Notes: a model not told the origin generated them from the letters alone. Positions 2,300-24,274 are shown, counted from the first letter of the stretch. The stretch: 64,000 nt of DNA from an uncultured Alphaproteobacteria bacterium (GCA_902614395.1 CACMKW010000003.1:36474-100473), one strand, 5' to 3'. A program made the numbers and translations.

Positions 2300-3067
2300 T
2301 TATTTAGCTGTCCATCCTCCATCAATTACTAGTGATGAACCAGTCATCATTGATGCAGCATCTGAGGCAAGATACACTACAGCACTAGCAATATCACTTT
2401 CAGTAGCTACTTTTCCTAAAGGTATGTTTTCAATTACAGATTTTTTAAAACTTTTATCTTTAAAAAATTTTTTGACCATTGGGGTTTCCACAAATGTAGG
2501 GCAAACGGAATTAACTCTAATGTTGTGCTTAGCCAAATCAATAGCCATCCCTTTGGTGAGACCTTCAACACCAAACTTAGTCATATTGTAAACACTTCTA
2601 AGAGGAGCGCCTACTTTACCTAACTGAGAAGAGATATTTATTATTGATCCACCAATTTTTTTTCTATTTTTAGTTTTAAGCATAACTTTTGTAGCTAATT
2701 GAGCAATATCGAATGATGCTTTAATATTAAGATCAACCACTTCACTCATATCTTTTCTTTTAATTTTAGTAAAATATTCAGGTCTATTTGTGCCAGCATT
2801 ATTCACTAATATGTCTAATTTATTGATTTCAGAAAATATTTTTTTAATTTCTTTTAAATTAGTTACATCACACACATAATAACTACATTTCTTTTTGAGT
2901 TTTTTAATTTTGTCTTGAACAATTAAAAGATCTTTCTCTGTACGACTAAGAATAATTATATTTGCACCTGCTTCTGCTAATGCTATTGCACATGCTTTAC
3001 CAATGCCTTTACCTGATCCTGTAACAAGAGCAGTTTTGTTGTTTACAGTAAAATTTTTTAGAAACAT
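2300..3067 (-). CDS. short-chain dehydrogenase/reductase (classical SDR)
   Basis: Cofactor motif TGSGKGIGKA, NNAG, and catalytic S...YNMTK. 255 aa. It is the last gene of the minus-strand importer operon. Confidence 0.85.
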   Translation of the reverse strand: MFLKNFTVNNKTALVTGSGKGIGKACAIALAEAGANIIILSRTEKDLLIVQDKIKKLKKKCSYYVCDVTNLKEIKKIFSEINKLDILVNNAGTNRPEYFTKIKRKDMSEVVDLNIKASFDIAQLATKVMLKTKNRKKIGGSIINISSQLGKVGAPLRSVYNMTKFGVEGLTKGMAIDLAKHNIRVNSVCPTFVETPMVKKFFKDKSFKKSVIENIPLGKVATESDIASAVVYLASDAASMMTGSSLVIDGGWTAK

Positions 3068-3080
3068 TTATTATAATTGT

Positions 3081-3740
3081 TTACAATGAAAAAATAGATT
3101 GATCTAATAAATTCATTTTTTTGATGCACATTTGAAAATTATCTTCTAGGTGGTAATCACCTGGAAACCCAATACATTTAATTCCAGCGTTTACAGCAGA
3201 ATTACTACTTTCTTCAGTATCCTCTATTGCAAGACAATCTTCTGATTGTAAATTTAATTTATCTAACGTAACTTTATAAATTTCTGGATGTGGTTTTTCA
3301 TTTTTAACCAATGATTTATTACCAATGAATTCAAATTCTTCTTTTGAAATTTGACCTGAAAGACTTTCAAATACTGCATCGACATTATTTAAAGTTGTAG
3401 AAGTTGAGAAAGCAAGTTTAATATTATTATCTTTTGTATACTTAATTATTTCATCAACGCTCTTTCTTAATTTTTGTTTGTTCTGAATAATGAATGAGCT
3501 AAAGATTTCTGTTTTTCTATTTCTAATTTGTGAAGCGTTAACATTAGTATTATTTTTTTCAGCAAAATCTTCTACCCTTTTTGTCCCACCAGATTTTTTT
3601 AACAAAATTTTATAGTCTTGCTCATCCCAATACCAATCAAGTCCAGCTTCTTTAAAAGCTTCGTTAAATGAGTTACGTTGAATGTTAGAAGATTCAATTA
3701 GTGTCCCAATAGATCCAAATAGAAGTGCTTTATATTTCAT
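3081..3740 (-). CDS. HAD-superfamily (subfamily IA-like) protein with non-canonical motif I
   Basis: Motif II LAFSTST, motif III EKPHPEIY, motif IV IEDTEESSNSAVNAG. Motif I reads LLFGSIGTLIE where hhhDxDGT is expected. Confidence 0.65.
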   Translation of the reverse strand: MKYKALLFGSIGTLIESSNIQRNSFNEAFKEAGLDWYWDEQDYKILLKKSGGTKRVEDFAEKNNTNVNASQIRNRKTEIFSSFIIQNKQKLRKSVDEIIKYTKDNNIKLAFSTSTTLNNVDAVFESLSGQISKEEFEFIGNKSLVKNEKPHPEIYKVTLDKLNLQSEDCLAIEDTEESSNSAVNAGIKCIGFPGDYHLEDNFQMCIKKMNLLDQSIFSL

Positions 3741-3758
3741 AAGATTAGAAATTTATTA

Positions 3759-4640
3759 TTAACCTTTTACTGCTCCAGCAGTTAAACCACTTATTAATTG
3801 TCTTTGGAAAAACATAATTATCATAAAAAGTGGTGCTGTTGCTGAAACAACACTTGAGACTGCCCACATATAATTTCCACTATGTTCAATTGTACCCAAA
3901 TAAGCATTAATTTTAGGAACCATAGTATAATTCTGCTGATTTAAAAGAAGTGAAGTAACTGTAAAATCATTATAGGCTAACATCATACTGAATAAACCTG
4001 CTGTAACAACTCCAGGCCACATAACAGGCATTATAACAAATCGAAACGCTTGAAAATATGAACAGCCATCAATTAGTGCGCTTTCATCTAACTCTTTAGG
4101 AACTGTTTTAAAGAATGAATAAAGTAACCATAATGTAAAGGGTTGATTGATTGCGACTAAAACAATTATGGTAGTTGGAAGTATGCCCCAAACGTTCAAT
4201 TGGAAAAAGGGAAACAGATAACCTGAAACTAATGTAATGTGTGGCATCGCTCTAAAAATCAAGGCAGCTATTAAAATCCAAAAAGTATATTTATATGTCG
4301 ATCTAGACAAGGCATAAGCACCTAATGTTCCTAAAAATAAAGAGATCGTAACAACTGAAACAGTAATAATAATTGTATTCATTGTTGCTTTCCAAAATTC
4401 ACCTTCAGTCCAAGACTCTACATAAGCCTTGACTGTAGAAGTATCTCCTGTTTCAATTAAAGTATTAACTCCTGTGACTGCAAACATCCAATCAGCTCTT
4501 GAGAAAAAGTCGGCTTTTACTTTAAATGATCCCCAAAAAGTCCATATAAAAGGAAACACAGAAATAATTAACCAAGCAAGAATAAAAAAACTATTTATTA
4601 AAATTAGTTGTTTTGAGTATCTGTTAATTTTTGATTCCAT
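3759..4640 (-). CDS. carbohydrate-type ABC transporter permease (MalG/UgpE-like)
   Basis: Six hydrophobic segments and an EAA loop LDESALIDGCSYFQAFRFVIMP. Confidence 0.85.
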   Translation of the reverse strand: MESKINRYSKQLILINSFFILAWLIISVFPFIWTFWGSFKVKADFFSRADWMFAVTGVNTLIETGDTSTVKAYVESWTEGEFWKATMNTIIITVSVVTISLFLGTLGAYALSRSTYKYTFWILIAALIFRAMPHITLVSGYLFPFFQLNVWGILPTTIIVLVAINQPFTLWLLYSFFKTVPKELDESALIDGCSYFQAFRFVIMPVMWPGVVTAGLFSMMLAYNDFTVTSLLLNQQNYTMVPKINAYLGTIEHSGNYMWAVSSVVSATAPLFMIIMFFQRQLISGLTAGAVKG

Positions 4641-4641
4641 A

Positions 4642-5670
4642 TTATCTTTCTGTCCTAAATTCTCTCCATGTTCTTATAAGTACTGGTGTTAATAGAATTG
4701 CTACACCAATAATAGTTAACATAGATGTTGCTCCTGCAGACCCAAATAACATTTTGTTTTCACTTCTTAAGTCGTTATAAATCATCCAAGAAAGTGATTG
4801 AGCAACTCCTTCAGCAGCGAACCCAATTATTGGCTCAAGAACTCTGAAATTATCCATTAGACAAATTAATATAATAAATGTTGCTACCGGATAAAGATGT
4901 GGAATAACAATGTGTCTGACTCGTTCATATCTTGAGGCACCATCTATGATCGCTGCTTCAATTGGATCTTGAGGAACAGTTTGTAATGCAGCATAAAAAA
5001 CAACAAAAGCAAATGGTGTATTGTGCCAGATCCCGTAAATAATCAGAGTAATCCAAGTCAATTGACTTGAAGACTTCAGTGATAGATTTGGATCATCAAA
5101 TAAGAATTGAATGAATGAACCTAATATTCCTTTAGCATCTATCATCCAAAATAAAACGAGAGACCCAATCAATGGTGTTACAATCATAGGCAGTATAACA
5201 CCAAAAATGGTTGGGCCTTTTAAGCTTTTTGTAATTGTATTTACACTTAAAGCAACAATGAAACCTAAAACTACAACTGGTGGTGTAACGGCAAAACAAA
5301 ATGTAAGTGTAAATAAAAGTGCTTTGTAAAAAGGTAAATTGAGTAAAATATCTGTAAACTCAGCTATCGATGAGGAATTAGTCCAAGCTTCTTTAATTTC
5401 ATCAAAAGCCAAATGATTTCTATCGCCGTATGTTCCTAAACCATTAAATCTTCCAAGAGGTTGTTCTTCTTGTAATTTTGTAGTGGCCTCAATATCTACT
5501 TTAGTTTCTGTTTTACATCCAAATGGATCGCATTTTTCTACTTCCATTAAAATTTGTTCAGGTTCAATATGAAGAGATTGAAAAAAACTAGAAATAATTG
5601 GAAGGCCAATAAATAATAGCATTGCCAATCCACTTGGAAAGAAGAACCAAAAAAATGTTCTGTGGGGCAT
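4642..5670 (-). CDS. carbohydrate-type ABC transporter permease (MalF/UgpA-like)
   Basis: EAA loop IEAAIIDGASRYERVRHIVIP and a long loop after TM1. Its stop is 1 nt from the next permease start. Confidence 0.85.
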   Translation of the reverse strand: MPHRTFFWFFFPSGLAMLLFIGLPIISSFFQSLHIEPEQILMEVEKCDPFGCKTETKVDIEATTKLQEEQPLGRFNGLGTYGDRNHLAFDEIKEAWTNSSSIAEFTDILLNLPFYKALLFTLTFCFAVTPPVVVLGFIVALSVNTITKSLKGPTIFGVILPMIVTPLIGSLVLFWMIDAKGILGSFIQFLFDDPNLSLKSSSQLTWITLIIYGIWHNTPFAFVVFYAALQTVPQDPIEAAIIDGASRYERVRHIVIPHLYPVATFIILICLMDNFRVLEPIIGFAAEGVAQSLSWMIYNDLRSENKMLFGSAGATSMLTIIGVAILLTPVLIRTWREFRTER

Positions 5671-5682
5671 CTATTTCTTACT

Positions 5683-5714
5683 AAAAAAAAAGTGGAACAT
5701 AATAATGTTCCACT
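5683..5714 (-). terminator. intercistronic rho-independent hairpin (attenuator) between the SBP and permease genes
   Basis: On the minus strand: AGTGGAACAT-tatt-ATGTTCCACT followed by a run of 9 T. It lies 22 nt after the SBP stop and 12 nt before the permease start. Confidence 0.6.
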
Positions 5715-5736
5715 TTATCATAAATAATTATACGGT

Positions 5737-6972
5737 TTATAGAAAACCTTGCTCAGTAGCTTTTGCTACATAAGCAGCTTCTACATCCGCTAATGCTTTT
5801 TCAGCAGACTCATTTCCTTGAAGGAATTCAACAAGTTCCGTACTCAAAGCACCATGTAATAGACTCATGTATGGTAAGCTTGGGTAAGGTGTTGCACCTC
5901 TGTTAGCAGCATCAACAACTGGTCCTGCTGTATCTCCAGGCGAATAACCATCAATCAACCAAATTGTTGCATTTGGATTAGCATTTGCCATTTCTGTTGA
6001 AGTTGCTGCACCTAAAAGAGCTCTAAAAGATGCTTCTGCATTTTCATCAGAAGTATTTGTTGCAATTCCAAATCCATCCCACCATAGAGTTGTTGCTGGT
6101 TTACTTCCACCACCTACAGATGGAGAAGGAGCCAATCTAGTATCAGCTTTAATTGCTTGATCACCTTCATCATCTAACAATGAAGCTGCACCTGAATTCC
6201 AGATGTGCATTAATGCTACATTACCAGACTCCCATTCTTCTTTAACTGCATTTGTATCTTGAGTTAAGAAATCAGGGTTACTTACTTCAGTTAATCTTTT
6301 AAGCATGTTAAGAGCAGCTACACCTTTAGCGTTATTTACACTAACTTCAGCTGTTCCAGCTTTAAAGAAATCACCCCCGTGACCAAGGTACATGTTTACA
6401 AACTCTTGACCTAAGTTCCATCCAGATTTGAAAGCACCAGCATATGGGTTAGCCATTTTACCAGAAGCTTTAATTTTTTCTGCAGCTGCAATTACCTCTT
6501 CATATGTTGAAGGAACTGCAATACCTAAATCATTAAGAATACTTTCTCTGTACCAAAGATGTTGAGCATTAGCCATAAATGCTACTGCATAAATTTTACC
6601 ATCAATCACGATTTTTTGATTGTCTTGTAATGCACTTCCGTATTTAGCAACTAAATCATCAAGTGGACGAATTAAATTATCATTCATTAAAGTTGTAATT
6701 GAACCATTAGTTACAAGTTTAGCAGAGAATTCAGCTGGGTTAGCTGAAAGTGCTGCAACTTGTAATTTATTATGATCAACGGAATGTGTTACAGAAAAAT
6801 CTGCATCAGGTCCTGCACAACTTTTTACTTCATCCATGAAAATTCTGTATGTTGTAAATTCGTTTGCTAGAATCTTTATTGATCCATCTGTTACTCCACA
6901 AGGTGAGTGCCCACCGGCATATGCACTTGTGCTAACAAATGTGAACAATAGAGCTATTAATAGTTTTTTCAT
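5737..6972 (-). CDS. ABC transporter periplasmic substrate-binding protein, family 1 (sugar/polyol type)
   Basis: Signal peptide MKKLLIALLFTFVSTSAYA. 411 aa. It is the first gene of an operon with two sugar-type permeases. Confidence 0.8.
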   Translation of the reverse strand: MKKLLIALLFTFVSTSAYAGGHSPCGVTDGSIKILANEFTTYRIFMDEVKSCAGPDADFSVTHSVDHNKLQVAALSANPAEFSAKLVTNGSITTLMNDNLIRPLDDLVAKYGSALQDNQKIVIDGKIYAVAFMANAQHLWYRESILNDLGIAVPSTYEEVIAAAEKIKASGKMANPYAGAFKSGWNLGQEFVNMYLGHGGDFFKAGTAEVSVNNAKGVAALNMLKRLTEVSNPDFLTQDTNAVKEEWESGNVALMHIWNSGAASLLDDEGDQAIKADTRLAPSPSVGGGSKPATTLWWDGFGIATNTSDENAEASFRALLGAATSTEMANANPNATIWLIDGYSPGDTAGPVVDAANRGATPYPSLPYMSLLHGALSTELVEFLQGNESAEKALADVEAAYVAKATEQGFL

Positions 6973-6994
6973 ATATTTCCCCTTATTAATAAAG

Positions 6995-7007
6995 TGTGAA
7001 ATTCACA
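6995..7007. promoter_or_regulatory. palindrome TGTGAAaTTCACA upstream of the SBP operon; candidate operator
   Basis: Perfect 6+1+6 inverted repeat, 23 nt upstream of the SBP start codon at 6972. The half-site TGTGAA resembles LacI/GalR-type half-sites, but the spacing is odd. Confidence 0.3.
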
Positions 7008-7063
7008 TTTAAGTATAAATCCTTTATATTAGTATTAGAAAATAATGCAATAATATGAATTGA

Positions 7064-7081
7064 TATTCAAGATTTTGAATA
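7064..7081. promoter_or_regulatory. operator candidate TATTCA-N6-TGAATA (site 1 of a motif recurring in this island)
   Basis: TATTCAagatttTGAATA. The arms extend to 8 bp (ATATTCAA/TTGAATAT). It ends 20 nt before the LacI-family start codon. Confidence 0.5.
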
Positions 7082-7101
7082 TTGAAATGGGGGGATAATT
7101 C

Positions 7102-8100
7102 ATGAGTTTTAAAAAGACTGCGACATCACAGGACGTAGCAAAACTAGCAGGAGTATCCCAATCAGCTGTTTCTAGATGTTTTACAAAAGGTGCTAGCATT
7201 TCTAGTAGAACAAAATTGAGAGTCTTGGAAGCAGCTAGGAAATTAAAATATAAAGCACCTAATATAACTTCTAATTCAATATCTAATGATGATAGCGGAT
7301 TAGTTGCTGTCATTTTACCTTACGTTACAAGCAGATATTATCCAGAAGTTTTAATAGAGTTACATGAAGCACTAAGGAATGGAGGCTTTAGAATTTTATT
7401 AATTACAACTGATGATGGAGAGGAATTAGATGAAAAATTAATACAGCCATACTTAAAAGAAAAACTCATTGCAATAATATCAGCAACAAAACCTACTGAT
7501 AAATTTGTCGAAGATTGCAATCAAAAAAGAATACAATTTATTGCTTATAATAGAAGTTGGAATATACCAACGATAAGTTCTGTTGCATGTGATCATCGTA
7601 ACGGAGGAGAATTAGTTGCAGAATATTTTACAAAGAAAAATCATAAAAATATTGGCCTGATTGAAGGGCCAAAAGGATCTTTTGTAAGTGATGAGCGATG
7701 CAAAGGTTTTAAAAATTATCTTAAAAATAATAAAAAAATTAAATTAAATATTGAAAAAGGTTTTTTTACTTACGAAGGTGGATATCAAGCAACAGAAAAA
7801 ATTTTCAATAAAAAGATAAGTGCAATATTTTGTGCTGATGACACAATGGCATTCGGATGCTTAGATTATATTAAAAAAAATACTTCATTAAAAACACCTT
7901 CTCAATTAGAAATTATTGGTTATGACGATATATCAATGTCAGCTTGGGGATCATATAACCTTACAACTGTCAGACAACCTATTAGACAAATGTCAAAAAT
8001 AGCAACTCAATTAATAAATGAATATATTAAAGATCCAGATTTTGAACCTATAAATCATATTGTACAGGGAAGACTTATAAAAAGAAAAACTACAAAATAA
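7102..8100 (+). CDS. LacI-family transcriptional regulator
   Basis: N-terminal HTH TSQDVAKLAGVSQSAVSRCF and a periplasmic-binding-fold effector domain. 332 aa. G-rich SD-like run at 7089-7094. Confidence 0.85.
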   Translation: MSFKKTATSQDVAKLAGVSQSAVSRCFTKGASISSRTKLRVLEAARKLKYKAPNITSNSISNDDSGLVAVILPYVTSRYYPEVLIELHEALRNGGFRILLITTDDGEELDEKLIQPYLKEKLIAIISATKPTDKFVEDCNQKRIQFIAYNRSWNIPTISSVACDHRNGGELVAEYFTKKNHKNIGLIEGPKGSFVSDERCKGFKNYLKNNKKIKLNIEKGFFTYEGGYQATEKIFNKKISAIFCADDTMAFGCLDYIKKNTSLKTPSQLEIIGYDDISMSAWGSYNLTTVRQPIRQMSKIATQLINEYIKDPDFEPINHIVQGRLIKRKTTK

Positions 8101-8101
8101 T

Positions 8102-8521
8102 TTACTTAAATTTTAATCCCATCTGTTCGAAGACACCATGATTATCTACCATAACGTAATTATCTAAAAATTTTCCATCTTTAATGGTCCAAAAATCTGA
8201 AAATTGCATTTTGATAGATTTCCCTGTTGGCTCCACTCCAAGATATGTTCCACTATGTGTGCCTGTAAGAAATCCTGTTGCACTAATCCACTCACCTTCA
8301 GCAACCACAATATCATTTTTTACATGATAATCTGGAAATGCTTCATAAAAAGGTTTTAGAACTTTATATTTAAAATTTTCTATACCATGAATATCACCAA
8401 AACCTGGAGGACCGTGCCAAACCATATCATCATGCCAGTACTTATGTTGTGCTTCTAGATCTTGAGCATTAAGTGCATCATACATATCAGCTAATAATTT
8501 TTTACTTTCATCTAAAGTCAT
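8102..8521 (-). CDS. single-domain SnoaL-like / 'ester cyclase' NTF2-fold protein
   Basis: 139 aa with ...YWHDDMVWHGPPGFG...AFPDY...GTHSG.YLGVEPTGKS...FWTIKDGKFLDNYVMVDNHGVFEQMGL. Its start overlaps the upstream gene by 4 nt. Confidence 0.7.
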   Translation of the reverse strand: MTLDESKKLLADMYDALNAQDLEAQHKYWHDDMVWHGPPGFGDIHGIENFKYKVLKPFYEAFPDYHVKNDIVVAEGEWISATGFLTGTHSGTYLGVEPTGKSIKMQFSDFWTIKDGKFLDNYVMVDNHGVFEQMGLKFK

Positions 8522-9657
8522 TTTTTATCTCCTAAAATTTGCATTAGTATTGCAAGCTCATTAAAACCCGTCCACTCTTTAATAATTTTATTATTTTTAA
8601 TTTCCCATTGAGTGATTCCCCACAAATACACTTCTCTATTAGATGGTTGACCATATGAGCCATTCCCTTTATGCGTTCCTACTGCACCCCAACGAACCGA
8701 TACTAAATATCCGTCTTTTGTATTTCCCATCCAGTATAAATCTTCAATACTAAGTGCAAGATCAGGAAACGAAGCTAAAAGTGAAATTATAAATTTTCTT
8801 AATTGCAAAACTCCTTTAAATTTTCGACCAGTTGAACCTTCAAATTCTACCTTATTCGAGTATGCTTTATTTATTGCAGAAAAGTTTCGTCTATTCCAAA
8901 TTGTATCATAAACTGCATGAACAAATTCTCTTACATTTGTAATTTTATCTGGAATATCAAAACTAATTGGTTTTAATTTAGTAATATTTCTTGTTGGTTT
9001 AGAGTTTTTAAAATGAGGGGCATAGGGTCCTGCAATTCCTTCATCAACAAGTTGCTTGGCAACCTTATTTAAATCTAATCCGAGTTGTTTAATTAAACCT
9101 GCTGTATCGTAGACAACATTTTCGTAATAAATTTCATTATTTCTGGCTACACAATTCGCAATACAAAATAATCTTACTTTTTTACCAGTTGGTTTGGAAA
9201 ATTTGCTAAATCCAGTATTTGTTCCAGTAATAATTGTTCTATGCGAAGTATGAAAACTTGCATTTTCATCTCCTGCCCAAATAACTTCATCTGCAAATAA
9301 TCGAATATCTGGAAAAGCGTTGTTTGTATGTACAGTATCAGCTACAATTTTTTCAGATCCAGATTGTAAACCAAATTCATCCCAAACTCTGCAATCTTTA
9401 CTGTAGGTGTCATAAATGTAGCCAATATTTTTTTCTTCCCAGATTTGATACGTAATCCTTACAATATAATCGATTATATTTTTATACTGATTCTCAAACC
9501 CCTTCATCGATTGATGTTTAAGTTTTTTTGGTTTTGGATTTAATGATTTTGCTGTTCCTCCACCTCCATATGCTTTTAATGAAATATCATAACTCTTAGG
9601 CATATGATTATCATGAAGGGCTTCTGGTCTTTTATCTGTAATTTTATTAAATTTCAT
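8518..9657 (-). CDS. two-domain SnoaL-like protein, type A
   Basis: Two NTF2-like halves ending ...CVARNNEIYYENVVYDTAGLIKQLGL and ...WEIKNNKIIKEWTGFNELAILMQIL. It is a paralog of 11902-12894. An alternative start at 9507 (MKGFENQYKN) would align with the paralog's N-terminus MKGFDAQFKD. Confidence 0.65.
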   Translation of the reverse strand: MKFNKITDKRPEALHDNHMPKSYDISLKAYGGGGTAKSLNPKPKKLKHQSMKGFENQYKNIIDYIVRITYQIWEEKNIGYIYDTYSKDCRVWDEFGLQSGSEKIVADTVHTNNAFPDIRLFADEVIWAGDENASFHTSHRTIITGTNTGFSKFSKPTGKKVRLFCIANCVARNNEIYYENVVYDTAGLIKQLGLDLNKVAKQLVDEGIAGPYAPHFKNSKPTRNITKLKPISFDIPDKITNVREFVHAVYDTIWNRRNFSAINKAYSNKVEFEGSTGRKFKGVLQLRKFIISLLASFPDLALSIEDLYWMGNTKDGYLVSVRWGAVGTHKGNGSYGQPSNREVYLWGITQWEIKNNKIIKEWTGFNELAILMQILGDKK

Positions 9658-9690
9658 AATTTGTATTTGTAATGAGATACATTTAAAAAT

Positions 9691-9728
9691 ATTTCAAAGC
9701 AATGAAATTTTATTCAAAAAAATGAATA
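9691..9728. promoter_or_regulatory. two adjacent operator candidates (ATTTCA-N6-TGAAAT and TATTCA-N6-TGAATA)
   Basis: 9691-9708 ATTTCAaagcaaTGAAAT and 9711-9728 TATTCAaaaaaaTGAATA, in the divergent gap between the type A and type B SnoaL-like genes. Confidence 0.5.
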
Positions 9729-9764
9729 TTGTCTTTTTTAGTTTATTAATATAATCAAAATGAA

Positions 9765-10769
9765 ATGACTGATCTCCAAGCAGAAAAAAAATTAATATTA
9801 GATTATTCAAATGAGATAGATAGTTGCAACATTGATTCATTATCTGAAGTTATATCCAAATACGCATCAGAAGATTTTAGTATGAAATGTACCCACCCAT
9901 TCAACGAACTAGGTAGTATAGATCTTGTTGCTAATAATCTTTGGAAACCAATTAAAGATTCATTTTCACCTATACAACGTCGATTAGATATATTTTATGC
10001 TGGGATAAATTCGCTAGATAAAAATAAAGGGAAATGGATCTCCAGTATGGGTCATTTCATGGGTGTTTTCAATAAGCCGTTTGTAGGCCTTAAACCAAAT
10101 AATAAATCAATTTTATTAAGATTTGCAGAATTTTACAAAGTGGAAAATAACAAAATTACTGAAGGAGCTATTTTTTTAGATGTAATGAATTTAATGCAGC
10201 AACTAGGTCTTTCTATAATTCCTGAATCTACAGGTCTTGTTTGTGTAACACCTGGACCAATGAATCATAAAGGTTTAAAATTTGATATTTCTAATGAAAG
10301 TGAAAGTCAAAAAACATTAGATTTAATTCATAGAATGCGCGATCGACTTGTTAAAGGATCCAAAATGCAATCTTATAAAGAAGAATTAGAATTAGATTGG
10401 CATAATGACATGATTTGGTGGGGACCAGGAGGTATAGGAGCTTCTTATACTATTGATGGCTATCAAAAAGGTCACACAAAACCATTTCAAGATGGTTTAG
10501 AGTTTGTTCGTTTCAATGGACACATACTTAGTAGCTCTGAAGATGATCTTGGAGGTTGGTTTGGTTGGCCAAATTTAATTATGAAACCTAAAGGAGAATA
10601 TTTAGGATTAACAAATGCAAGTAATATTGAATCAGAAATGAGAGTTGTAGATTTATATCGAAGAGATGGAGATAAATTAGCTGAAAACTGGATCTTTATT
10701 GATCATTTACATTTTTTAAAAAAACTAGGAGTGGATCTTTTAGAAAGAGCAAAATTTTTAAATCAGTAA
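9765..10769 (+). CDS. two-domain SnoaL-like protein, type B
   Basis: Halves ending ...YKVENNKITEGAIFLDVMNLMQQLGL and ...YRRDGDKLAENWIFIDHLHFLKKLGV. Contains DMIWWGPGGIGAS. It is a paralog of 13969-15066. Confidence 0.65.
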   Translation: MTDLQAEKKLILDYSNEIDSCNIDSLSEVISKYASEDFSMKCTHPFNELGSIDLVANNLWKPIKDSFSPIQRRLDIFYAGINSLDKNKGKWISSMGHFMGVFNKPFVGLKPNNKSILLRFAEFYKVENNKITEGAIFLDVMNLMQQLGLSIIPESTGLVCVTPGPMNHKGLKFDISNESESQKTLDLIHRMRDRLVKGSKMQSYKEELELDWHNDMIWWGPGGIGASYTIDGYQKGHTKPFQDGLEFVRFNGHILSSSEDDLGGWFGWPNLIMKPKGEYLGLTNASNIESEMRVVDLYRRDGDKLAENWIFIDHLHFLKKLGVDLLERAKFLNQ

Positions 10770-11897
10770 TTAGATAACTTTTGAGGCAAGTTTAGTACCT
10801 TCAACTAATGCATGAAGCTTTTCATAACAAATTTTTTCATCAATTTTTCCAAAACCAGCAAATGTACTAAAACCACAATCTGTCCCTGCCATTAATTGAT
10901 CTTTTGGAATTACTGTAGAAAACTGAATTAATCTATCTGCTACAACTTCTGGATGTTCAACAAAATTAGATGTTGAATCAATTACGCCAGGTACTAAGAC
11001 TTTATCTTTTGGTAACTTTATATCTTGAAAAACTTTCCATTCATGTGCGTGCCTAGGATTAGAAGACTCAATTAGAAAGTATTTTATCTTTGATTTCAAA
11101 ATTATAGGTAATATTTTCTCTAGAGCAATATCGTGTGTGTGGGGTCCTTCATAATTGCCCCAACATATATGCATTCTAGTTTGTTCAATATCAACATTAG
11201 ATAATGCTGAGTTCAGACATTCAATTTGTAGTTCTGCACGTTTAATAAATTCATCCTCAGATAAATTTTTAAAATTCATGTGTCTTGCTAAAGCAAGGTC
11301 TGGGCAATCTAGCTGAACATGAATATTTGATTTTGTTATAACCTCATATTCTTTAGCCATAATATTAGATAATTTATCCAAATATTCATCTTCAGTACTA
11401 TAAAATTTATTTGGCATAAAAACATTTATGACGCCAGGTGATGCTGAGTTCATAAATGCATGTCGGTGATTTAGTTTATCAAGTGAATTTTTAAAGTTAT
11501 TTATATCCTGTAGAAGAGAAGTTTCATCTTTTACTTTTAATTCGTTTGTGCAACATGGCCTGGTATAAGTTGGTGTGCCACCACTTTTAGCAATCTTTTC
11601 TTTATATTCTGGAAAATCGTCAAGGTCAGCAGGTGCTCTTCTTTCGCTTTCACCTGAGAACCCATCAATTCTGTCTTTAATATATGTAGCGTAGCTAATT
11701 TTACTCATCTCCCCATCACTGACAAAATCAATTCCAACATCAAGTTGTCTCTTCACAACACTTTCCACGTTATTTTTTAATACTTCATCAAAACTACTTT
11801 TACTAAATTTCTCTCCTTTATCTTTTGCAAATAAAAAATCTGAAAGTTCTTTTGATCTAGGAAGGCTTCCAACATGTGTTGTCAAAATATTAGACAT
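10770..11897 (-). CDS. stand-alone MetE-like (cobalamin-independent methionine synthase catalytic-domain family) Zn-dependent methyltransferase
   Basis: N-terminus MSNILTTHVGSLPR. Candidate Zn ligands MHICWGN (H.C), LIESSNPRH (E) and AGTDCGFS (C) are in the order expected for MetE. 375 aa, so only the catalytic barrel is present. Confidence 0.7.
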   Translation of the reverse strand: MSNILTTHVGSLPRSKELSDFLFAKDKGEKFSKSSFDEVLKNNVESVVKRQLDVGIDFVSDGEMSKISYATYIKDRIDGFSGESERRAPADLDDFPEYKEKIAKSGGTPTYTRPCCTNELKVKDETSLLQDINNFKNSLDKLNHRHAFMNSASPGVINVFMPNKFYSTEDEYLDKLSNIMAKEYEVITKSNIHVQLDCPDLALARHMNFKNLSEDEFIKRAELQIECLNSALSNVDIEQTRMHICWGNYEGPHTHDIALEKILPIILKSKIKYFLIESSNPRHAHEWKVFQDIKLPKDKVLVPGVIDSTSNFVEHPEVVADRLIQFSTVIPKDQLMAGTDCGFSTFAGFGKIDEKICYEKLHALVEGTKLASKVI

Positions 11898-11901
11898 TAA
11901 A

Positions 11902-12894
11902 TTAACCTGTTTTTAATAAAATCTGTTTCCAGATCATAGTTTCATCATAGAGAACCCATTCATTTTTAATACCTCTTTCTCCAAATTCAACATGATTAAT
12001 ACCCATTATATAAATTTTCGAATTAGAGGCTTTCCCAAAAAGACCATCCCCTTCATGTTTGCCTACCATAGACCAACGAACTGAAGCTTTTTTAGGTTCA
12101 TATTTTTCTTCAGTAAAAGCAATGTGCTCGACTGAGAACAATGCGTTAGGAAAAGCATCTCTTAATTGTTTCCAAAATTTTATTACCTCATCTCTACCAT
12201 AGTGAGTATTTCCCCCTGGTTGAAATTGCTGTATGGCTCTGTCATAATTATCATTTATTGTTTTGTCTAAATTAATGTTCATAATAGAACTTAAGATATT
12301 TGCATATAATTCTCCAAAGTTACCAGATGCTAATACAGGAGATTTATAAATTGATTTAACAGGTGTATTTTCATCAAAGGGTTTACTAGCTTTTTCAGGA
12401 CCGCCTTCATCTTTAATTAGATTGCTTGCAAATTTCTTGGGGTCAATTCCAATTTGTCTCACAATTGCTCCTTGATCTCTCACAAGCCACTCATCATAAA
12501 CTTGATTATTCATGCATGCACAATCAGCAATAGTTCGGTAATATAGTTTTTTTCCTGTCGCTTTCCCATACATCCCATCAACAGAATGAGTAGAGGTTGA
12601 TAAAATGCGATGTGATGAAAAATATCCCTCATCATCATTTCCTGTCCAAATTACATCTTCACCTAAAAGTGTTCTGTCGGGAAATAGTTTTTTACTAGCA
12701 TAGGTACTTTCAATTACTGGGTCTGCACCATAAATTACTCCAGATGGAGATCTTGTAGGTGTGGGGAGGCTTACATTTGGAATATCAGCATAATAATCTC
12801 TTATTGCTTCAACATCATTGTTTTCCCAAATTTGATATGTGATCTTTAAAATATAATCAGGAAAATCTTTGAATTGTGCATCAAATCCTTTCAT
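11902..12894 (-). CDS. two-domain SnoaL-like protein, type A
   Basis: MKGFDAQFKDFPDYILKITYQIWE..., with halves ending ...CMNNQVYDEWLVRDQGAIVRQIGI and ...FGERGIKNEWVLYDETMIWKQIL. Confidence 0.65.
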   Translation of the reverse strand: MKGFDAQFKDFPDYILKITYQIWENNDVEAIRDYYADIPNVSLPTPTRSPSGVIYGADPVIESTYASKKLFPDRTLLGEDVIWTGNDDEGYFSSHRILSTSTHSVDGMYGKATGKKLYYRTIADCACMNNQVYDEWLVRDQGAIVRQIGIDPKKFASNLIKDEGGPEKASKPFDENTPVKSIYKSPVLASGNFGELYANILSSIMNINLDKTINDNYDRAIQQFQPGGNTHYGRDEVIKFWKQLRDAFPNALFSVEHIAFTEEKYEPKKASVRWSMVGKHEGDGLFGKASNSKIYIMGINHVEFGERGIKNEWVLYDETMIWKQILLKTG

Positions 12895-12905
12895 TTAATT
12901 AATAT

Positions 12906-13877
12906 TTAATTAGTTTGCCGTATTATAAATAAATTACCATCATGATCACTTATCTGCCTGATTGAACGTAGTGAATTTTTTGGTACTGAAAAGGTATCTT
13001 TTTCTTTAATTACTACTTTATCTCCATCACAATCTATTTCCCATTCGCCAGATAAACAATGATACACTTCTGATTTCTCTAGTTTGTATTCATGTATATG
13101 AGCACTCTTGCCGTTCAGAAGTGAAAGGCTAAAACCTGTTGAATGCGGTATATTTGGTGTAAAAGATTTATCATGAATTTGAAACTGATCAATATAGTTA
13201 ATAATTTTATTAGATTGATAGTGATCATCATCAACAAAGTATTTATCTTTATCATTAAATCGAATAACAAATTTTTCTATGTCTTCTGAAGAGTAATGAT
13301 CGAAACTCTCTAATTCATTATCTTTTAGTGGTTGAATAATTTTAGTCTCATCTGTTATTTTCTGTTTCTCTGTGTCGATTAAAGAATTATCATGCATTAA
13401 TACCATGCCAGATTCTTTTGCATCTTTTAAAAGTTTAGGCGTCCAAGTAATAACACCTGGATCATTTTCACCTAACACAACAAACATTAGCGCCTCTTCA
13501 TCACTTACATTTTGAAAACCTCTGAACATGTTTGTAGGAAAAGAAGCAATATCACCTTTTTTTAGGATTACTTCTCCCTCTGTGCCATCAACACCCCAGT
13601 AAAAACGCCAAGCACCTGAATGAATGATAAAAACTTCTGCAGTTGTATGACTATGTAAACCAGAACCATTCATTGGAGCAGCGCTTACCGCACCAATATT
13701 AAATCCATGTTCTTCAGCTATTTTAACGTTTTGTTTAGCATCTTCACTGACACCAGGGCCTATTACTGAATAATTTTTTCTATCTTGATGACCTTTTAAT
13801 TTTCCCTCAACAAATGGAATATTACTAGGAATAAGTTCATCGAATTTTGCTAATCTAGATGTAATATTAATTGACAT
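12906..13877 (-). CDS. bicupin protein
   Basis: N-terminal cupin motif 1 GSGLHSHTTAEVFIIHSG (HxH...E). Motif 2 is GDIASFPTNMFRGFQN, with Arg where the His is expected. The C-terminal cupin has HIHEY...E...H. Confidence 0.65.
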   Translation of the reverse strand: MSINITSRLAKFDELIPSNIPFVEGKLKGHQDRKNYSVIGPGVSEDAKQNVKIAEEHGFNIGAVSAAPMNGSGLHSHTTAEVFIIHSGAWRFYWGVDGTEGEVILKKGDIASFPTNMFRGFQNVSDEEALMFVVLGENDPGVITWTPKLLKDAKESGMVLMHDNSLIDTEKQKITDETKIIQPLKDNELESFDHYSSEDIEKFVIRFNDKDKYFVDDDHYQSNKIINYIDQFQIHDKSFTPNIPHSTGFSLSLLNGKSAHIHEYKLEKSEVYHCLSGEWEIDCDGDKVVIKEKDTFSVPKNSLRSIRQISDHDGNLFIIRQTN

Positions 13878-13892
13878 ATTGTTATGATCTTT

Positions 13893-13930
13893 TATTCATT
13901 TTTTTTGAATATTATTCAAAATAATGAATA
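13893..13930. promoter_or_regulatory. two adjacent operator candidates (TATTCA-N7-TGAATA and TATTCA-N6-TGAATA)
   Basis: 13893-13911 TATTCAtttttttTGAATA and 13913-13930 TATTCAaaataaTGAATA, in the divergent gap between the bicupin operon and the type B/HisD-like operon. Confidence 0.5.
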
Positions 13931-13968
13931 AATCAATTATTATTTAACAATAGTGTTATTAAATTATT

Positions 13969-15066
13969 ATGGCAAATAAAATACAAAACTTTGATACAGG
14001 TGAAAAAGCTAACTCAAACATAATTCATTTAGATCTTGATCCAAAAATAAATATCGAAAACAAAATATATTTTAAATATTTATTAAATAAAATTGCTGAA
14101 TGTTCTATTGAAGATTTAGAAGATAATCTTGAAAATTTATATCATGTAGATGCAGAGCTTAATGGCTTTCATCCAGTTAATGAAATTAAGGGAATTGAAG
14201 AAATAAAAAATAAATATTTAATACCTTTAAAGAAAGCATTTCCTGATCTTGAAAGAAGAAATAATCTAGTTATTGGTGGAGCATTCAGAGATAAAGTATT
14301 TGTTTCATTTGTTAGTCATTTAACTGGAACATTTTCAAATGAATGGTTGGGCGTTAAACCAACAAACAAAACAATTCATCTTCGAACATGTGAAGCACAT
14401 CAAATAACTAATAACAAAATAATAAAATCCTACACATTGATTGATACTGTAGATTTTATTCGTCAGGCTGGTCATTGGCCCATTAATAAATCGCTTGGTG
14501 TAGAGGGTATGTGGCCTTCCCCAATCACAGGTGATGGAGAAAATAATCAAAATTTAGATAAGGAATTATCTCTTCAATCTTTAAATCAAGATTTAACTAT
14601 GCAAAGAAGTTTGAATATTAAACCCGAGACTGAACCAGGTCTTACAAAAGATCAAATAAGAGAAAAATTAATTAATCATCCTCAACAAGATTATTGGCAT
14701 CCAAAAATGATGTGGTATGGGCCAAGTGGCATAGGCACAGCTAGAGGTTTAGATGGTTTTGTTGATCATCACCAACTCCCATTTAGACTTACATTCAAGG
14801 ATAGAGATTATTGGAAAATTGGTCATTACATTGAAATTGGGGATGGAAATTATTCAATGACTGGAGGATGGCATAGTATCCAATGTGTCCATGGATCTAG
14901 TGATTGGCTAGGGTATGAACCAACTCATAAAAAAATAACAATGAGAGTAATGGATTTTTATTTACATCATGAAGGACTTATAAGGGAAAATTGGGTACCA
15001 ATTGATATAGCACACATACTCGATCAAATAGGTATTGATATCTTTAAATTAATTCATAAAAAATAA
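13969..15066 (+). CDS. two-domain SnoaL-like protein, type B
   Basis: Halves ending ...[25 protein letters not shown] and ...[26 protein letters not shown]. Contains [12 protein letters not shown]. Confidence 0.65.
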
Positions 15067-15068
15067 TT

Positions 15069-16391
15069 ATGGCAATTGAATATTTAAAAAAAGGATTAGA
15101 TGAAAAACAAAGAATTGAAGATAATGATAAAGTAAAAAAAATTGTTGAGGAAACATTAAGTAAAATTGAGTCAGAAGGTGATAAACACATTAGAGAGTTA
15201 TCTCAAAAATTTGATAACTATTCACCAGATAGTTTTAGGTTAAATGAAGATCAAATTAATCAATTAATCAGTGAAGTATCTGATGATGATAAAGAAGATA
15301 TTAAATTTGCTCAGAAACAAGTGCGCACATTTGCTGAAGCACAACTAAAAACTTTAAGTGAATTAGAAGTAGAAACGCACCCAGGTGTTATTCTAGGTCA
15401 TAAGAATATACCTGTACAAGCAGTAGGTTGCTATGTTCCAGCCGGTAAATTTCCAATGGTGGCTTCTGCACATATGTCAGTTGTTACTGCCTCTGTTGCT
15501 GGTGTACCAAGAATTGTAGCCACAACTCCACCTTTTAAAGGTAAACCAAATCCAGCAGTTGTAACAGCAATGAAAATGGGCGGTGCTCACGAAATTTATG
15601 TCTTAGGAGGAATGCAAGGAGTTGGCGCAATGGCTATTGGTACAGAAACTATTAAACCAGTTGATATGCTTGTTGGACCTGGCAATGCATTTGTTGCTGA
15701 AGCGAAAAGACAATTGTATGGTAGAGTTGGTATCGATTTATTTGCTGGTCCAACCGAAACAATGGTTATTGCTGATGAAACTGTTGATGGTGAAATATGT
15801 GCAACTGATTTATTAGGACAAGCTGAACATGGATATAATTCTCCTGCTATAATGATAACAAACTCAAGAAAACTTGCAGAAGATACATTTAAAGAGATTG
15901 ATAGAATTTTAGAAATATTACCTACTAAAGAAACAGCAAGTACAAGCTGGAAAGATTACGGGGAAATTATTTTGTGTGACACCTATGAGGAGATGTTATC
16001 TAAAGCAAATGAAATAGCATCAGAACACGTACAAGTAATGACAAAAAAAGATGATTGGTTTTTAGAAAATATGACATCTTATGGAGCTCTTTTTTTGGGA
16101 GCTAGAACTAATGTTGCTAATGGTGATAAAGTAATAGGCACCAATCATACTCTTCCTACTAAAAAAGCTGGAAAATACACTGGTGGTTTATGGGTTGGTA
16201 AATTTATTAAAACTCACACCTATCAAAAAATTATGACAGATGAAGCAGCTAAACTTATTGGAGAATATGGATCAAGACTATCTTACCTTGAGGGATTTAT
16301 TGGTCACGCAGAACAATGCAATGTTAGAGTGAGAAGATATGGTGGCTTAAATGTAGAGTATGGAAAACCTGCATCAAAAATTAAAAATTAA
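15069..16391 (+). CDS. histidinol-dehydrogenase-family NAD-dependent 4-electron alcohol dehydrogenase (paralog; substrate unknown)
   Basis: HisD blocks [50 protein letters not shown] and EGFIGHAEQ. It starts 2 nt after the SnoaL-like type B gene and is not in a his-operon context. Confidence 0.8.
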
Positions 16392-16393
16392 AA

Positions 16394-18265
16394 TTAAATT
16401 ATATTATTAACTTTCAAGAAATCTAAAACTTCATCAGCTAATTCTTCAGGATTTTTTAAAAGTGTTTTCAATTTAATTTCTGGATCAGAAGGTGCCTCAT
16501 AATCAGAATCTATTCCTGTAAAATTTTTTAATATTCCTGATCTAGCTTTTTTATATAATCCTTTTGGATCTCGACTCTCACATTCTTCCAATGGTGTATC
16601 CACAAAAATTTCAACAAACTCATTATCTTTAAATAAATCTCTTGCCATTTTTCTTTCTGATTTAAAAGGGGATATAAATGAAACTAAAGTAATTAATCCA
16701 GCATCAGTCATTAATTTTGCAACTTCTGAAACCCTCCTTATATTTTCTACCCTATCTTCATCTGTAAATCCTAAGTCTTTGTTAAGACCATGTCTGATAT
16801 TATCACCATCTAATAAATATGTTCTTTTATTTAGATCATGTAATTTTTGTTCTAAAATATTAGCAATAGTAGATTTACCTGATCCTGAAAGACCAGTGAA
16901 CCATAATACGCAAGGTTTTTGAGAATTCATTTTTGATCTCTTCACTTTGTCAACAGACATTTCATGCCATGAAATATTACTTGCTCTTCTTAGTTCATAA
17001 TCAATAACCCCAGCACCAACAGTTAAATTATTAAATTGATCAATGATTACAAAACTTCCAAGTTGATTATTGTCTTTGTATGATTGAATAAATGTTTTTC
17101 TACTCAACGCAATTTTGCAATAACCAATATCGTTTAATTTCAAAGACTTTGAGGCAATTTTTTCATACGAATTAATATTTATTTTGTGAACTAAATCAGT
17201 AATTTTTCCTGTTATGTATGAGTTTGTAAATCTAAATATATAATTTCTTTCAGGTAACATCTTATCTTTATTCATCCAAATAATATGAGCTGCAAACTGA
17301 TCTGTAATTTTAATATTATCTAAATTACTTGTAATTAAATCACCTCTAGAAATATCAATTTCTTTATCCAAAGTAAGAGTAACAGCTTGCCCGTTCGTAG
17401 CATTTTTCATACTTCCTTCTGGAGCAATAATTTGATTTATTTTTGCGACTTCACTTGAAGTTGTAATATAAATTTTATCATTAATATTAATGGAACCAGA
17501 AACTACTGTTCCACTATATCCTCTAAAATTAGAAGTAGATCTATTAACCCATTGAACTGGCATACAGAAATTATCATTTTTATTATCTTTAGTTAATTTT
17601 AAATTTTCTAATGTATTTATTAAAGTTTCTTTTTTATACCATGGCATATTCTTAGAAACCCTAAAAACATTATCTCCTTTTAGAGCAGACATTGGAATAT
17701 AATCTTTTGAAGTGAAGTCAAAATTTGTTGAAATTATTTCAAATTTTTTTGTTATTTTTGAAAAAATATCTTCATCATAATTTACAAGATCCATTTTATT
17801 GATTGCTATTACAATATGTCTAATTCCTAAAAGTGATAAAATGAAAGTGTGCCGTTTTGTTTGATCTAATATACCTTTAGTTGAATCAATTAGTACAATC
17901 CCTACATCAGAATTTGATGCTCCTGTTGCCATGTTTCTTGTATATTCTTCATGACCTGGCGTATCAGCAATAATAAACTTACATTTTTGTGTTTCAAAAT
18001 ATCGATAAGCTACGTCAATTGTTATTCCTTGCTCCCTTTCAGCTTGCAAACCATCAATTAATAATGCAAGGTCAATATCTTTCCCCTGAGTTCCATATTT
18101 TTCACTTTCATATTCAGCTTGCGAAATCTGATCATGAAAAATACTTTTTGAATCAAATAGCAATCTCCCAATTAATGTTGATTTACCATCATCGACGGAT
18201 CCACATGTAAGAATTTTAACCTGATTTTTTGTATTCTGTTTTTTAAAAAAGGTATTTATATCCAT
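16394..18265 (-). CDS. cysNC: bifunctional sulfate adenylyltransferase subunit 1 (GTPase) / adenylylsulfate kinase
   Basis: G1 [10 protein letters not shown]3 DTPGHEEY, G4 NKMD. The C-terminal APS-kinase P-loop is GLSGSGKST. 623 aa. Confidence 0.9.
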
Positions 18266-19164: not shown

Positions 19165-19169
19165 TTATT

Positions 19170-24273: not shown

Positions 24274-24274
24274 A

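Follow-up and report, generated by a model that had tools for sequence, protein, structure and literature searches.

A 64-kb stretch of DNA from an uncultured alphaproteobacterium (GCA_902614395.1, CACMKW010000003.1:36474-100473; here called the window, gene-dense and with about 30% G+C) contains an island of genes that very likely forms a repressor-controlled catabolic regulon. Its hallmark is a set of nine SnoaL/NTF2-like domains in five proteins, S1 with one domain and A1, B1, A2 and B2 with two each. They are encoded next to a LacI-family regulator, a CUT1-type ATP-binding cassette (ABC) importer, a bicupin, a MetE-like zinc protein and a HisD-like dehydrogenase. In the interpretation favoured here, which has about an even chance of being correct, LacI represses genes for the degradation of one imported polar, non-phosphorylated small molecule or a closely related family of such molecules; the compound is probably cyclic. 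The window is regarded as SAR11-type on the grounds of its nearest relatives, single-cell genomes that carry the labels 'uncultured Alphaproteobacteria' and Pelagibacteraceae.

The case for common control comes from the regulator and its predicted operators:

7102..8100, plus strand: LacI-family repressor (Pfam LacI helix-turn-helix and Peripla_BP_1/3/4)
7064..7081, unstranded: operator O1, TATTCAAGATTTTGAATA, between the gene of the solute-binding protein (SBP) and the LacI gene; position kept in LacI-bearing relatives
9711..9728, unstranded: operator O2, TATTCAAAAAAATGAATA, between A1 and B1
13893-13911, unstranded: operator O3, TATTCATTTTTTTTGAATA, between the bicupin gene and B2
13913-13930, unstranded: operator O4, TATTCAAAATAATGAATA, between the bicupin gene and B2

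The palindrome TATTCA-N6/7-TGAATA (18-19 bp) occurs four times in the 64 kb, starting at 7064, 9711, 13893 and 13913, and every copy falls into one of the divergent gaps 6973-7101, 9658-9764 and 13878-13968. Related loci were taken from a pattern scan of 185,579 species genomes (GTDB), which gave at least 558 type A relatives; the best 80 loci of the scan plus locus L001 make up a SAR11-type comparison set of 81. In this set the palindrome is present in 43 of 43 loci with a LacI gene and in none of the 33 complete loci that lack one, and the remaining five are only apparent exceptions, as their contigs stop short of the LacI position. The related loci carry it in equivalent gaps, with conserved half-sites and variable spacers. 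The confinement of the palindrome to the gaps and its co-variation with the LacI gene are strong sequence evidence that a single repressor governs all units starting in the three gaps, with the palindrome as the predicted operator; the domains of the regulator and the position of the palindromes in the promoters concerned are those of a LacI repressor/operator system. The shared operator suspected in the initial annotation is thus corroborated, as are the gaps 9658-9764 and 13878-13968 as divergent promoter regions with the A<->B layout that it described. The units that start in the three gaps are SBP-permease-permease-HAD-SDR, LacI, A1-S1, B1, bicupin-A2-MetE-like and B2-HisD-like, and one common gap serves LacI and the importer operon. 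The latter comprises:

5737..6972, minus strand: periplasmic SBP (SBP_bac_1, CUT1 family; Pfam 70.7 bits)
5689..5716, minus strand: intrinsic-terminator-like hairpin, 12-bp stem and T run, between the SBP and permease genes
4642..5670, minus strand: ABC permease 1, CUT1 type (BPD_transp_1)
3759..4640, minus strand: ABC permease 2, CUT1 type (BPD_transp_1); follows permease 1 in all related loci
3081..3740, minus strand: HAD-IA hydrolase, beta-phosphoglucomutase family (Pfam HAD_2; TIGR02009 77 bits, below cutoff)
2300..3067, minus strand: SDR oxidoreductase, last gene of the importer operon (Pfam adh_short_C2, 203 bits)

A dedicated importer had been proposed before, and the Pfam domains of the CUT1-type SBP and the two BPD_transp_1 permeases agree with it; those of the regulator confirm the adjacent LacI gene. 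The best PDB match of the SBP is a trehalose/maltose-binding protein (46 bits). A MalK/UgpC-type ATPase was not found anywhere in the 64-kb window, whose only Walker-A ABC ATPases are part of an Opp/Dpp system; cluster versions outside SAR11 carry their own MalK-type ATPase. Identity of the importer with the SAR11 glucose system SAR11_0769 (PMC11485210) was considered and rejected, since no solved SBP scored above 46 bits, the presence of SAR11_0769 among the structures searched being unconfirmed. In locus L001 (15590-16718) the SBP gene is split into open reading frames (ORFs) of 192 and 199 aa, either by a frameshift, as a pseudogene or through an assembly error. The HAD gene is tied to the cluster only in SAR11 loci. 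The SDR gene adjoins the HisD-like gene in L001, Ensifer, Pelagibius, Ruegeria and Pantoea, and its NCBIfam matches are to generic SDR or glucose 1-dehydrogenase-like models, below cutoff.

The cluster is clearly transcribed in situ in seawater. Twenty public sequencing runs among those listed share 32-49% of the 31-mers of the region; 14 are labelled metatranscriptomic RNA-Seq and six are of unstated kind. Contig depth, a crude measure of transcription, was compared in four marine metatranscriptomes, a check proposed along with the initial annotation. It was 10-150 over 8.0-16.4 kb, 560-3470 for the SBP gene, whose mRNA is among the deepest of the region, 30-80 for the permeases, and 0-3 for the adjoining cysNC, cysD and cysQ. 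The fall in depth from the SBP gene to the permeases occurs at the hairpin 5689-5716, the top terminator-like site within 2000-17000, and the hairpin is therefore likely an attenuator.

The SnoaL/NTF2 proteins that give the island its character are:

8102..8521, minus strand: S1, single-domain SnoaL/NTF2 protein, B-like (PF07366); 4-nt overlap with the A1 stop
8518..9657, minus strand: A1, type A double NTF2 protein (PF07366) with a conserved 50-aa N-terminal extension
9765..10769, plus strand: B1, type B double NTF2 protein (two PF07366 stretches, type B motif)
11902..12894, minus strand: A2, type A double NTF2 protein of the core module (PF07366, AlphaFold model)
13969..15066, plus strand: B2, type B double NTF2 protein of the core module (PF07366, pairwise identity, synteny)

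All eight ORFs claimed in the initial annotation are present where it had placed them, and its nine C-terminal tails and the type A and type B motifs recur verbatim in the sequence. The five proteins belong to the NTF2-like superfamily, as had been assumed: with matched stretches counted as domains, all exceed the gathering score of Pfam SnoaL PF07366 (28.4 bits), with 88.6 bits for S1, 87.6 for A1, 52.5 for B1, 51.4 for A2 and 67.4 for B2, and the model of A2 has the alpha+beta cone fold. This AlphaFold model (64 homologs, pLDDT 95) places the NTF2 domains at residues 11-147 and 193-329. The division into types A and B likewise withstood comparison, since A1 shares 33% identity with A2 from end to end (E 2e-53) and B1 27% with B2 (E 3e-38), in agreement with the motifs; S1 goes with type B and is 31% identical to each half of B2. 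No further SnoaL-like ORF was found elsewhere in the 64 kb, so the clustering of these genes is not due to chance. The A2 family is large (7207 clusters at 90% identity; 162 clusters at 50% identity and E <= 1e-30). In Foldseek, single NTF2 domains of A2 match IdmH, SnoaL-like cyclases, AclR/SnoaL2 and limonene epoxide hydrolases; the fold searches thus agreed with the assigned folds but left the chemistry equally wide. The SnoaL methyl-ester cyclase model NF033407 scores S1 at 32.2 bits, far below its cutoff of 200, and the NCBIfam profile search gave no hit of this model in A1, B1, A2 or B2. In a hand alignment of S1 with what we take to be the SnoaL sequence, the His and Asp positions of the catalytic set Gln/His/His/Asp are not kept, and this serves as a lead only.

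The genomic distribution of the cluster is that of a catabolic pathway. All 81 SAR11-type loci retain it, or part of it where contigs are short. Their conserved core consists of B2, bicupin, A2, MetE-like, SBP, two permeases and HAD, with LacI in a subset of the loci, and the SDR and a HisD-family gene usually travel with this core. The accessory genes B1-A1-S1 are an insert between the MetE-like gene and LacI/SBP and are missing from many lineages, including the cultured Pelagibacter HIMB1506, HIMB1611 and nBUS_29. Outside SAR11, loci were reached by a search from a high-GC homolog. Ensifer adhaerens encodes LacI, a B-like protein, a MalK-type ATPase, SBP, permeases, a single-domain SnoaL protein, HisD-like, SDR, A2-like, bicupin, an alpha/beta hydrolase and an RraA-like protein, and Pelagibius and Ruegeria conchae have this set plus a MetE-like gene. 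Minimal versions, composed of NTF2 proteins and an importer, occur in Vibrio pelagius (four double-NTF2 genes and an ABC importer only), in Phaeobacter piscinae (only B1-, A1- and S1-like genes with importer and LacI) and in the long contig L093. Further variants in Deinococcus, S. medicae, Pantoea, Labrenzia, Novosphingobium and the long contigs L093-L095 have a second HisD-like gene, an amidase or a C-N hydrolase; in some, an HpcH-type aldolase replaces RraA, and an MFS or TonB-dependent importer replaces the ABC system. A set of bicupin, hydrolase, amidase, aldolase, HisD-like and SDR genes is found in S. medicae, Pantoea, Novosphingobium and L094. The importer type thus differs among versions (ABC, MFS, or TonB receptor plus MFS), whereas across phyla the enzymes are kept, and it is this pattern that speaks for catabolism. 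Co-localisation in related genomes, on which the initial annotation depended, is seen within and outside SAR11, and the genes are not scattered. The alpha/beta hydrolase of the relatives is closest to PcaD (3-oxoadipate enol-lactonase; E 1e-26 to 2e-30) and their HpcH-type aldolase to HpaI (E 1e-43). Their RraA-like protein shows weak similarity to 4-carboxy-4-hydroxy-2-oxoadipate aldolase and had no match among PDB sequences at E <= 1e-5.

Several loci depart from these arrangements. In Labrenzia, S. medicae and Novosphingobium, A1-like genes are present with no B gene at all, and the initial suggestion of A/B hetero-oligomers, a conjecture, had to be qualified accordingly. Two SAR11 lineages that have no B1-A1-S1 possess yet another type B gene in the importer operon, a third paralog of 357 aa with 30-32% identity to B2; it lies after SDR in L032 (18109-19182) and between permease 2 and HAD in L054 (17190-18263). 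On the 3.1-Mb contig L094, a 204-aa gene resembling S-adenosylmethionine-dependent methyltransferases (11976-12590) is inserted between the bicupin and MetE-like genes, and an alpha/beta hydrolase, an amidase, a second HisD-like gene and a TctABC transporter follow further on. On a Vibrio pelagius plasmid (L086, 1-3713), genes for a heterotetrameric sarcosine oxidase adjoin the minimal NTF2 cluster, which may hint at a substrate with an N-substituted glycine or N-methyl moiety.

The island was initially thought to have arisen by local duplication of an A<->B unit, the copies of which then recruited different partners. This view had to be abandoned. A1 is 59% identical to a Phaeobacter piscinae protein encoded beside an ABC importer, compared with 33% to A2, S1 is 60% identical to its Phaeobacter ortholog, and A2 is about 50% identical to proteins of Ensifer and Ruegeria. 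Because A1 and A2 are nearer to proteins of distant genera than to each other, the A1/A2 and B1/B2 splits must be ancient and older than SAR11, and a recent local duplication is rejected, since for each paralog the partner within the window is a more distant relative than proteins from other orders. Neither were the partners recruited anew, since HisD-like, SDR, bicupin and MetE-like genes accompany A2-type genes across phyla. Judged from these sequence relationships, the island is two ancient paralogous modules joined together, each of which also stands alone elsewhere: B1-A1-S1 with an importer in Phaeobacter, and B2-bicupin-A2-MetE-like in many SAR11. In MarineAlpha5_Bin5 (L030, 12123-14371), B1 and A1 are 95% and 90% identical to those of the window and S1, A2 and the bicupin 70-72%; these mosaic identities suggest a recent exchange of a B1-A1 segment between lineages.

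Three further enzymes accompany the NTF2 proteins, and Pfam recovered their families (Histidinol_dh, Meth_synt_2 and Cupin_2 in two stretches) at the ORFs for which the initial annotation had named them:

15069..16391, plus strand: HisD/HpsN-family NAD-dependent 4-electron alcohol-to-acid dehydrogenase (Histidinol_dh 443.9 bits; G-K-F-P-M loop)
10770..11897, minus strand: MetE-like Zn protein (Meth_synt_2, 'methionine synthase II family'; Pfam 51.5 bits)
12906..13877, minus strand: bicupin (Cupin_2, two stretches)

The dehydrogenase belongs to the HpsN/HisD family, as its S-E-H and G-D-K motifs align with E318/H319 and D352/K353 of CpHpsN. Its closest solved structures are the HpsN entries 8v35 (400 bits) and 8wwe (358 bits), compared with 256 bits for the best HisD. 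HpsN is characterised by the loop G-R-Y-A/S-H with the sulfonate-binding His126, and HisD by G-S-A-P-L (PMC11382572). Where the alignment with 8v35 has the HpsN loop, the window enzyme has G-K-F-P-M, which is common to the cluster orthologs in other SAR11 lineages, MarineAlpha5 and Ruegeria; the Pelagibius ortholog has G-K-Y-P-L, and the final His is absent from the Pelagibius and Deinococcus orthologs. On account of the loop, both HpsN and HisD are rejected as assignments, and the latter also disagrees with the operon shared with B2 and the greater proximity to HpsN than to any HisD structure. The automatic hisD annotation is thus misleading, even though model TIGR00069 (hisD) scores the protein at 428.7 bits against a cutoff of 243.8. 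Considering the loop and the identities of 71% to the Ensifer cluster ortholog versus 49% to the HpsN-type gene of Pelagibacter HIMB1506, the enzyme represents, by sequence, a third and highly conserved subfamily beside HisD and HpsN. The earlier label 'HisD-like' accordingly holds for the family and needed refinement at the subfamily level. We expect a substrate other than DHPS (2,3-dihydroxypropane-1-sulfonate) or histidinol, in which a -C(OH/NH2)-CH2OH group would be oxidised to the acid. An HpsN-type G-R-Y-A-H gene beside the core cluster was seen only in Pelagibacter HIMB1506 and nBUS_29 (L065, 6255-7535; L080, 5590-6876), where it converges on B2 and the cluster-type HisD-like gene is absent. 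In L011, L020 and L056, the slot next to B2 (at about 13.2 kb) is occupied by another HisD subfamily with G-R-Y-N-N (46-47% identity); HAD (55-58%) and SDR (72-74%) are also divergent there, and the rest of the cluster is 92-98% identical in L011, mostly 91-96% in L020 (B2 68%, importer 79-86%) and divergent throughout in L056 (40-74%).

The MetE-like protein has 375 aa and lacks the folate-binding half of MetE, a protein of about 750 aa with two barrels. None of the NCBIfam methionine-synthase models comes near its cutoff (TIGR01371 36.9 bits versus 930; PRK04326 103.7 versus 406). The motifs H-I-C(-W-G), E-S-S-N-P-R-H and D-C-G-F are invariant in eight sequences from SAR11 to Ruegeria and Pelagibius, as are G-S-L-P-R over the same range and D-G-E from SAR11 to Ruegeria. 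They include the His-x-Cys, Glu and Cys of Meth_synt_2, which we take to be the zinc ligands by analogy with MetE as generally known, and by the same analogy they indicate a Zn-activated thiol acceptor. For the bicupin, the fold is apparent from an AF2 model (pTM 0.80) and Foldseek matches to bicupins (E ~1e-15), the nearest being oxalate decarboxylase, quercetin 2,3-dioxygenase and salicylate 1,2-dioxygenase. H75-x-H77-x3-E81 of its N-terminal domain is invariant. Cupin dioxygenases have a metal site of three His, or three His and one Glu, that includes the motif-2 His; the bicupin has an invariant R119 at this fourth-His position and likewise an Arg in the C-terminal domain. A redox role is therefore no more than plausible.

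Full-text searches found no paper on the function of these genes, and PDB sequence searches with A2, B2, bicupin, MetE-like protein and SBP gave weak matches only (15-46 bits). No assigned ortholog emerged from either, in line with the initial view that the genes perform a real multi-step conversion fitting no described pathway. The enzyme roles outlined below are tentative and have a somewhat less than even chance of being correct. Uptake by the CUT1 ABC system would come first. The cytoplasmic, cofactor-free S1, A1, B1, A2 and B2 would then carry out the early, substrate-specific steps, presumably the hydrolysis or isomerisation of C-N or C-O bonds in an enone-type ring; other NTF2 enzymes perform comparable chemistry on epoxides, enones and beta-hydroxyketones. 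Since minimal clusters have nothing but NTF2 proteins and an importer, the cell must benefit from these steps even on their own. The MetE-like Zn enzyme may move a methyl group of the substrate onto homocysteine or another thiol, and the HisD-like enzyme would convert -C(OH or NH2)-CH2OH to a carboxylate at the expense of two NAD+. The bicupin could then open or rearrange the ring at a metal centre beside a carboxylate-binding Arg, this residue in the active site being the reason to assume a carboxylate substrate. In the relatives, a PcaD-like enol-lactone hydrolase and an HpaI- or RraA-type aldolase would complete the pathway to pyruvate and a C4 acid.

Which compound enters this pathway is a matter of chemical reasoning only. 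Mycosporine-like amino acids or gadusol-type cyclohexenones are the class that fits every component chemically, and the named substrate is an unlikely guess that derives only from this fit and the habitats of the carriers (surface ocean, sea ice, a red-alga associate, high-altitude Deinococcus and leaf Pantoea). With such substrates, the NTF2 proteins would hydrolyse enaminone or imine C-N bonds and release glycine, serine, threonine or ammonia. The MetE-like enzyme would take off the 2-O-methyl group (a vinylogous ester) onto homocysteine, and the HisD-like enzyme would oxidise the hydroxymethyl group at C5, which carries OH and CH2OH. Cleavage of the resulting cyclic reductone between C2 and C3 by the bicupin could give 4-carboxy-4-hydroxy-2-oxoadipate, a substrate of RraA/LigK-type aldolases, and then pyruvate and oxaloacetate. 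If true, the NTF2 fold would provide a new class of enaminone/imine hydrolases, and the transfer of the O-methyl group to homocysteine would supply methionine to a bacterium unable to reduce sulfate. That the island is the first known degradation pathway for these UV sunscreens released by phytoplankton must nevertheless be considered improbable, and several observations weigh against the pathway or its substrate. The enzyme roles rest on family membership at low sequence identity. In the bicupin, the fourth His found in known cupin dioxygenases is missing, and an isomerase or some non-redox activity is conceivable. The hydrolase and the aldolase of the relatives and a MalK-type ABC ATPase were not found in the window; in the form proposed, the pathway is thus not complete in this genome. 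The G-R-Y-N-N enzymes in the HisD slot fit better with a variable part of the substrate than with a constant ring hydroxymethyl group. Sugars are the usual business of CUT1 importers and LacI regulators, and the plant-associated Ensifer, Sinorhizobium and Mesorhizobium are not obvious mycosporine consumers. Finally, no literature linking mycosporines with NTF2 proteins was found, and papers for or against the proposed substrate did not turn up either.

The sugar-type importer and regulator lead to an alternative, the degradation of an O-methylated sugar, a cyclitol or another polyol. The NTF2 proteins would then be isomerases, mutarotases or dehydratases acting on keto-sugars that the SDR produces. 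Demethylation would be the task of the MetE-like protein, and the bicupin would serve as a sugar-acid isomerase of the KduI or KdgF kind. The CUT1 importer, the LacI regulator, the SDR and the gene resembling HAD sugar phosphatases would all have a place in such a pathway; cupins are generally known as sugar-acid isomerases (KduI, KdgF), HpcH-type aldolases split 2-keto-3-deoxy sugar acids, and the aldolase of Deinococcus matches GarL and rhamnonate aldolase too. However, kinases, glycoside hydrolases and enolase/IlvD-type dehydratases are absent from all cluster versions inspected, several of which contain an amidase; the hydrolase is nearer to the enol-lactonase PcaD than to sugar lactonases, and NTF2 enzymes are not known to have a precedent in sugar catabolism. 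Taken together, a polyol is an unlikely substrate. The amidase would find an explanation if the substrate were an N-heterocycle or an amide-yielding hydroxymethyl ring, for example a vitamin-B6-like pyridine, degraded by the logic of the nicotinate pathway through side-chain oxidation, dioxygenase ring opening and hydrolysis of ester and amide bonds. It agrees with this idea that a bicupin, an alpha/beta hydrolase, an amidase-signature enzyme, an aldolase, one or two HisD-like proteins and an SDR recur together in S. medicae, Pantoea, Novosphingobium and L094. Such a substrate is still very unlikely, because the SAR11 versions lack the amidase, the minimal versions of Vibrio, Phaeobacter and L093 contain NTF2 proteins and an importer only, and the known B6 and nicotinate pathways generally use flavin or non-cupin oxygenases.

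The similarity of the dehydrogenase to HpsN raises the question whether an organosulfonate or sulfo-sugar (DHPS, sulfoquinovosyl glycerol) is degraded by an HpsN-type DHPS-3-dehydrogenase after uptake by a SmoF-like CUT1 importer. Besides the HpsN structures 8v35 and 8wwe as closest matches, this is suggested by a weak similarity of the SBP to the sulfoquinovosyl-glycerol binding protein SmoF (32 bits), by the HpsN-type gene adjoining the core cluster in HIMB1506 and nBUS_29, by the genes for the synthesis of 3'-phosphoadenosine-5'-phosphosulfate (PAPS) that border the island in the window, and by the weak DHPS activity reported for SAR11 HpsN homologs (PMC11131964). The cluster dehydrogenases, however, lack the HpsN-defining His (motif according to PMC11382572), and about 15 cluster versions inspected contain no SuyAB, Xsc, CuyA, sulfoquinovose monooxygenase, sulfoquinovosidase or sulfite exporter. 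The linkage with cysNC/D/Q is confined to this lineage, and these genes are barely transcribed. A sulfonate pathway is therefore rated as quite unlikely, and a functional tie of the cluster to cysNC/D/Q was rejected on account of this lineage-specific linkage to genes that are near-silent where the cluster is expressed. The automatic label 'ester cyclase; polyketide metabolic process' would imply biosynthesis of a small polyketide-like natural product, and it has on its side the Pfam/GO labels of the orthologs and the structural similarity to polyketide cyclases. The gene context rules this out almost completely: no polyketide synthase (PKS), non-ribosomal peptide synthetase, acyl carrier protein or exporter is present, the cluster includes an SBP-dependent importer and a LacI repressor as integral parts, and the host genomes are streamlined (~1.3 Mb).

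The PAPS-synthesis set occupies 16394-19967 on the minus strand and comprises a fused CysN/CysC (GTPase and adenosine-5'-phosphosulfate kinase), cysD and a cysQ-like phosphatase. What looks like a second catabolic region follows at 20043-38853, with PutA (20043-23177), an enolase-superfamily (MR/MLE) gene (23164-24273), five hydantoinase/oxoprolinase A and B genes (24275-33597) and an Opp/Dpp-type ABC importer (33712-38853).

Many lineages of SAR11 with their streamlined genomes retain an island of 8-14 kb that is transcribed in the sea. This retention, the transcription and the depth of the SBP mRNA make it likely that the substrate is a quantitatively relevant component of labile dissolved organic matter, which current models of SAR11 carbon use leave out. 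Carriers of the enzyme set also include roseobacters, rhizobia, Vibrio, Pantoea and Deinococcus. One solved ortholog would annotate several thousand 90%-identity clusters that currently go under the wrong labels 'ester cyclase / polyketide metabolic process' or 'hisD'. Fused double NTF2 enzymes would thereby gain their first role in primary metabolism, and the short MetE-like family a new reaction.

Among characterised systems, the polyether epoxide hydrolases Lsd19 and MonBI-MonBII share with the island proteins two NTF2 domains per chain or complex and are cofactor-free acid/base catalysts. Among full-length Foldseek matches to A2 they rank highest (3rga, E 9.6e-8; 9kw6, E 1.5e-7), although with 9-11% identity, a different domain arrangement and TM scores of 0.33-0.40. 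Their role is biosynthetic and their genes lie in PKS clusters, whereas the island has four or five paralogs, together with genes for import and repression. Ester cyclases of the SnoaL/AknH/IdmH type belong to the Pfam family common to all five island proteins, and single domains superimpose with TM scores of 0.7-0.8, but the island has no polyketide context. In its overall logic the island resembles the hps regulon for DHPS of Ruegeria pomeroyi and Cupriavidus, which consists of the LacI-type regulator HpsR, the importer HpsKLM and HpsN/O/P (PMC4334477, PMC11382572). Both combine a LacI-family regulator, an importer, a HisD-family 4-electron dehydrogenase and an SDR. They differ in the importer (ABC in the island, tripartite ATP-independent periplasmic in hps), the HpsN signature His and desulfonation genes are absent from the island, and hps clusters have no counterpart of its NTF2, bicupin and MetE-like genes. 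The lower pathways of aromatic ring cleavage share with the non-SAR11 versions a PcaD-like hydrolase and an HpaI-like or RraA-like aldolase, which follow the bicupin there, and the bicupin has a fold like oxalate decarboxylase and quercetinase, with the fourth metal-binding His missing. This likeness is limited by scores far under the family cutoffs and by an importer and a regulator of sugar type rather than aromatic-acid type. Compared with MetE and 'core-MetE', finally, the MetE-like protein has kept the C-terminal Zn/homocysteine barrel with its ligand motifs, G-S-x-P-R and D-G-E. Unlike MetE, it is half as long, has no folate-binding domain and is encoded in a catabolic operon, between A2 and B1 or LacI.

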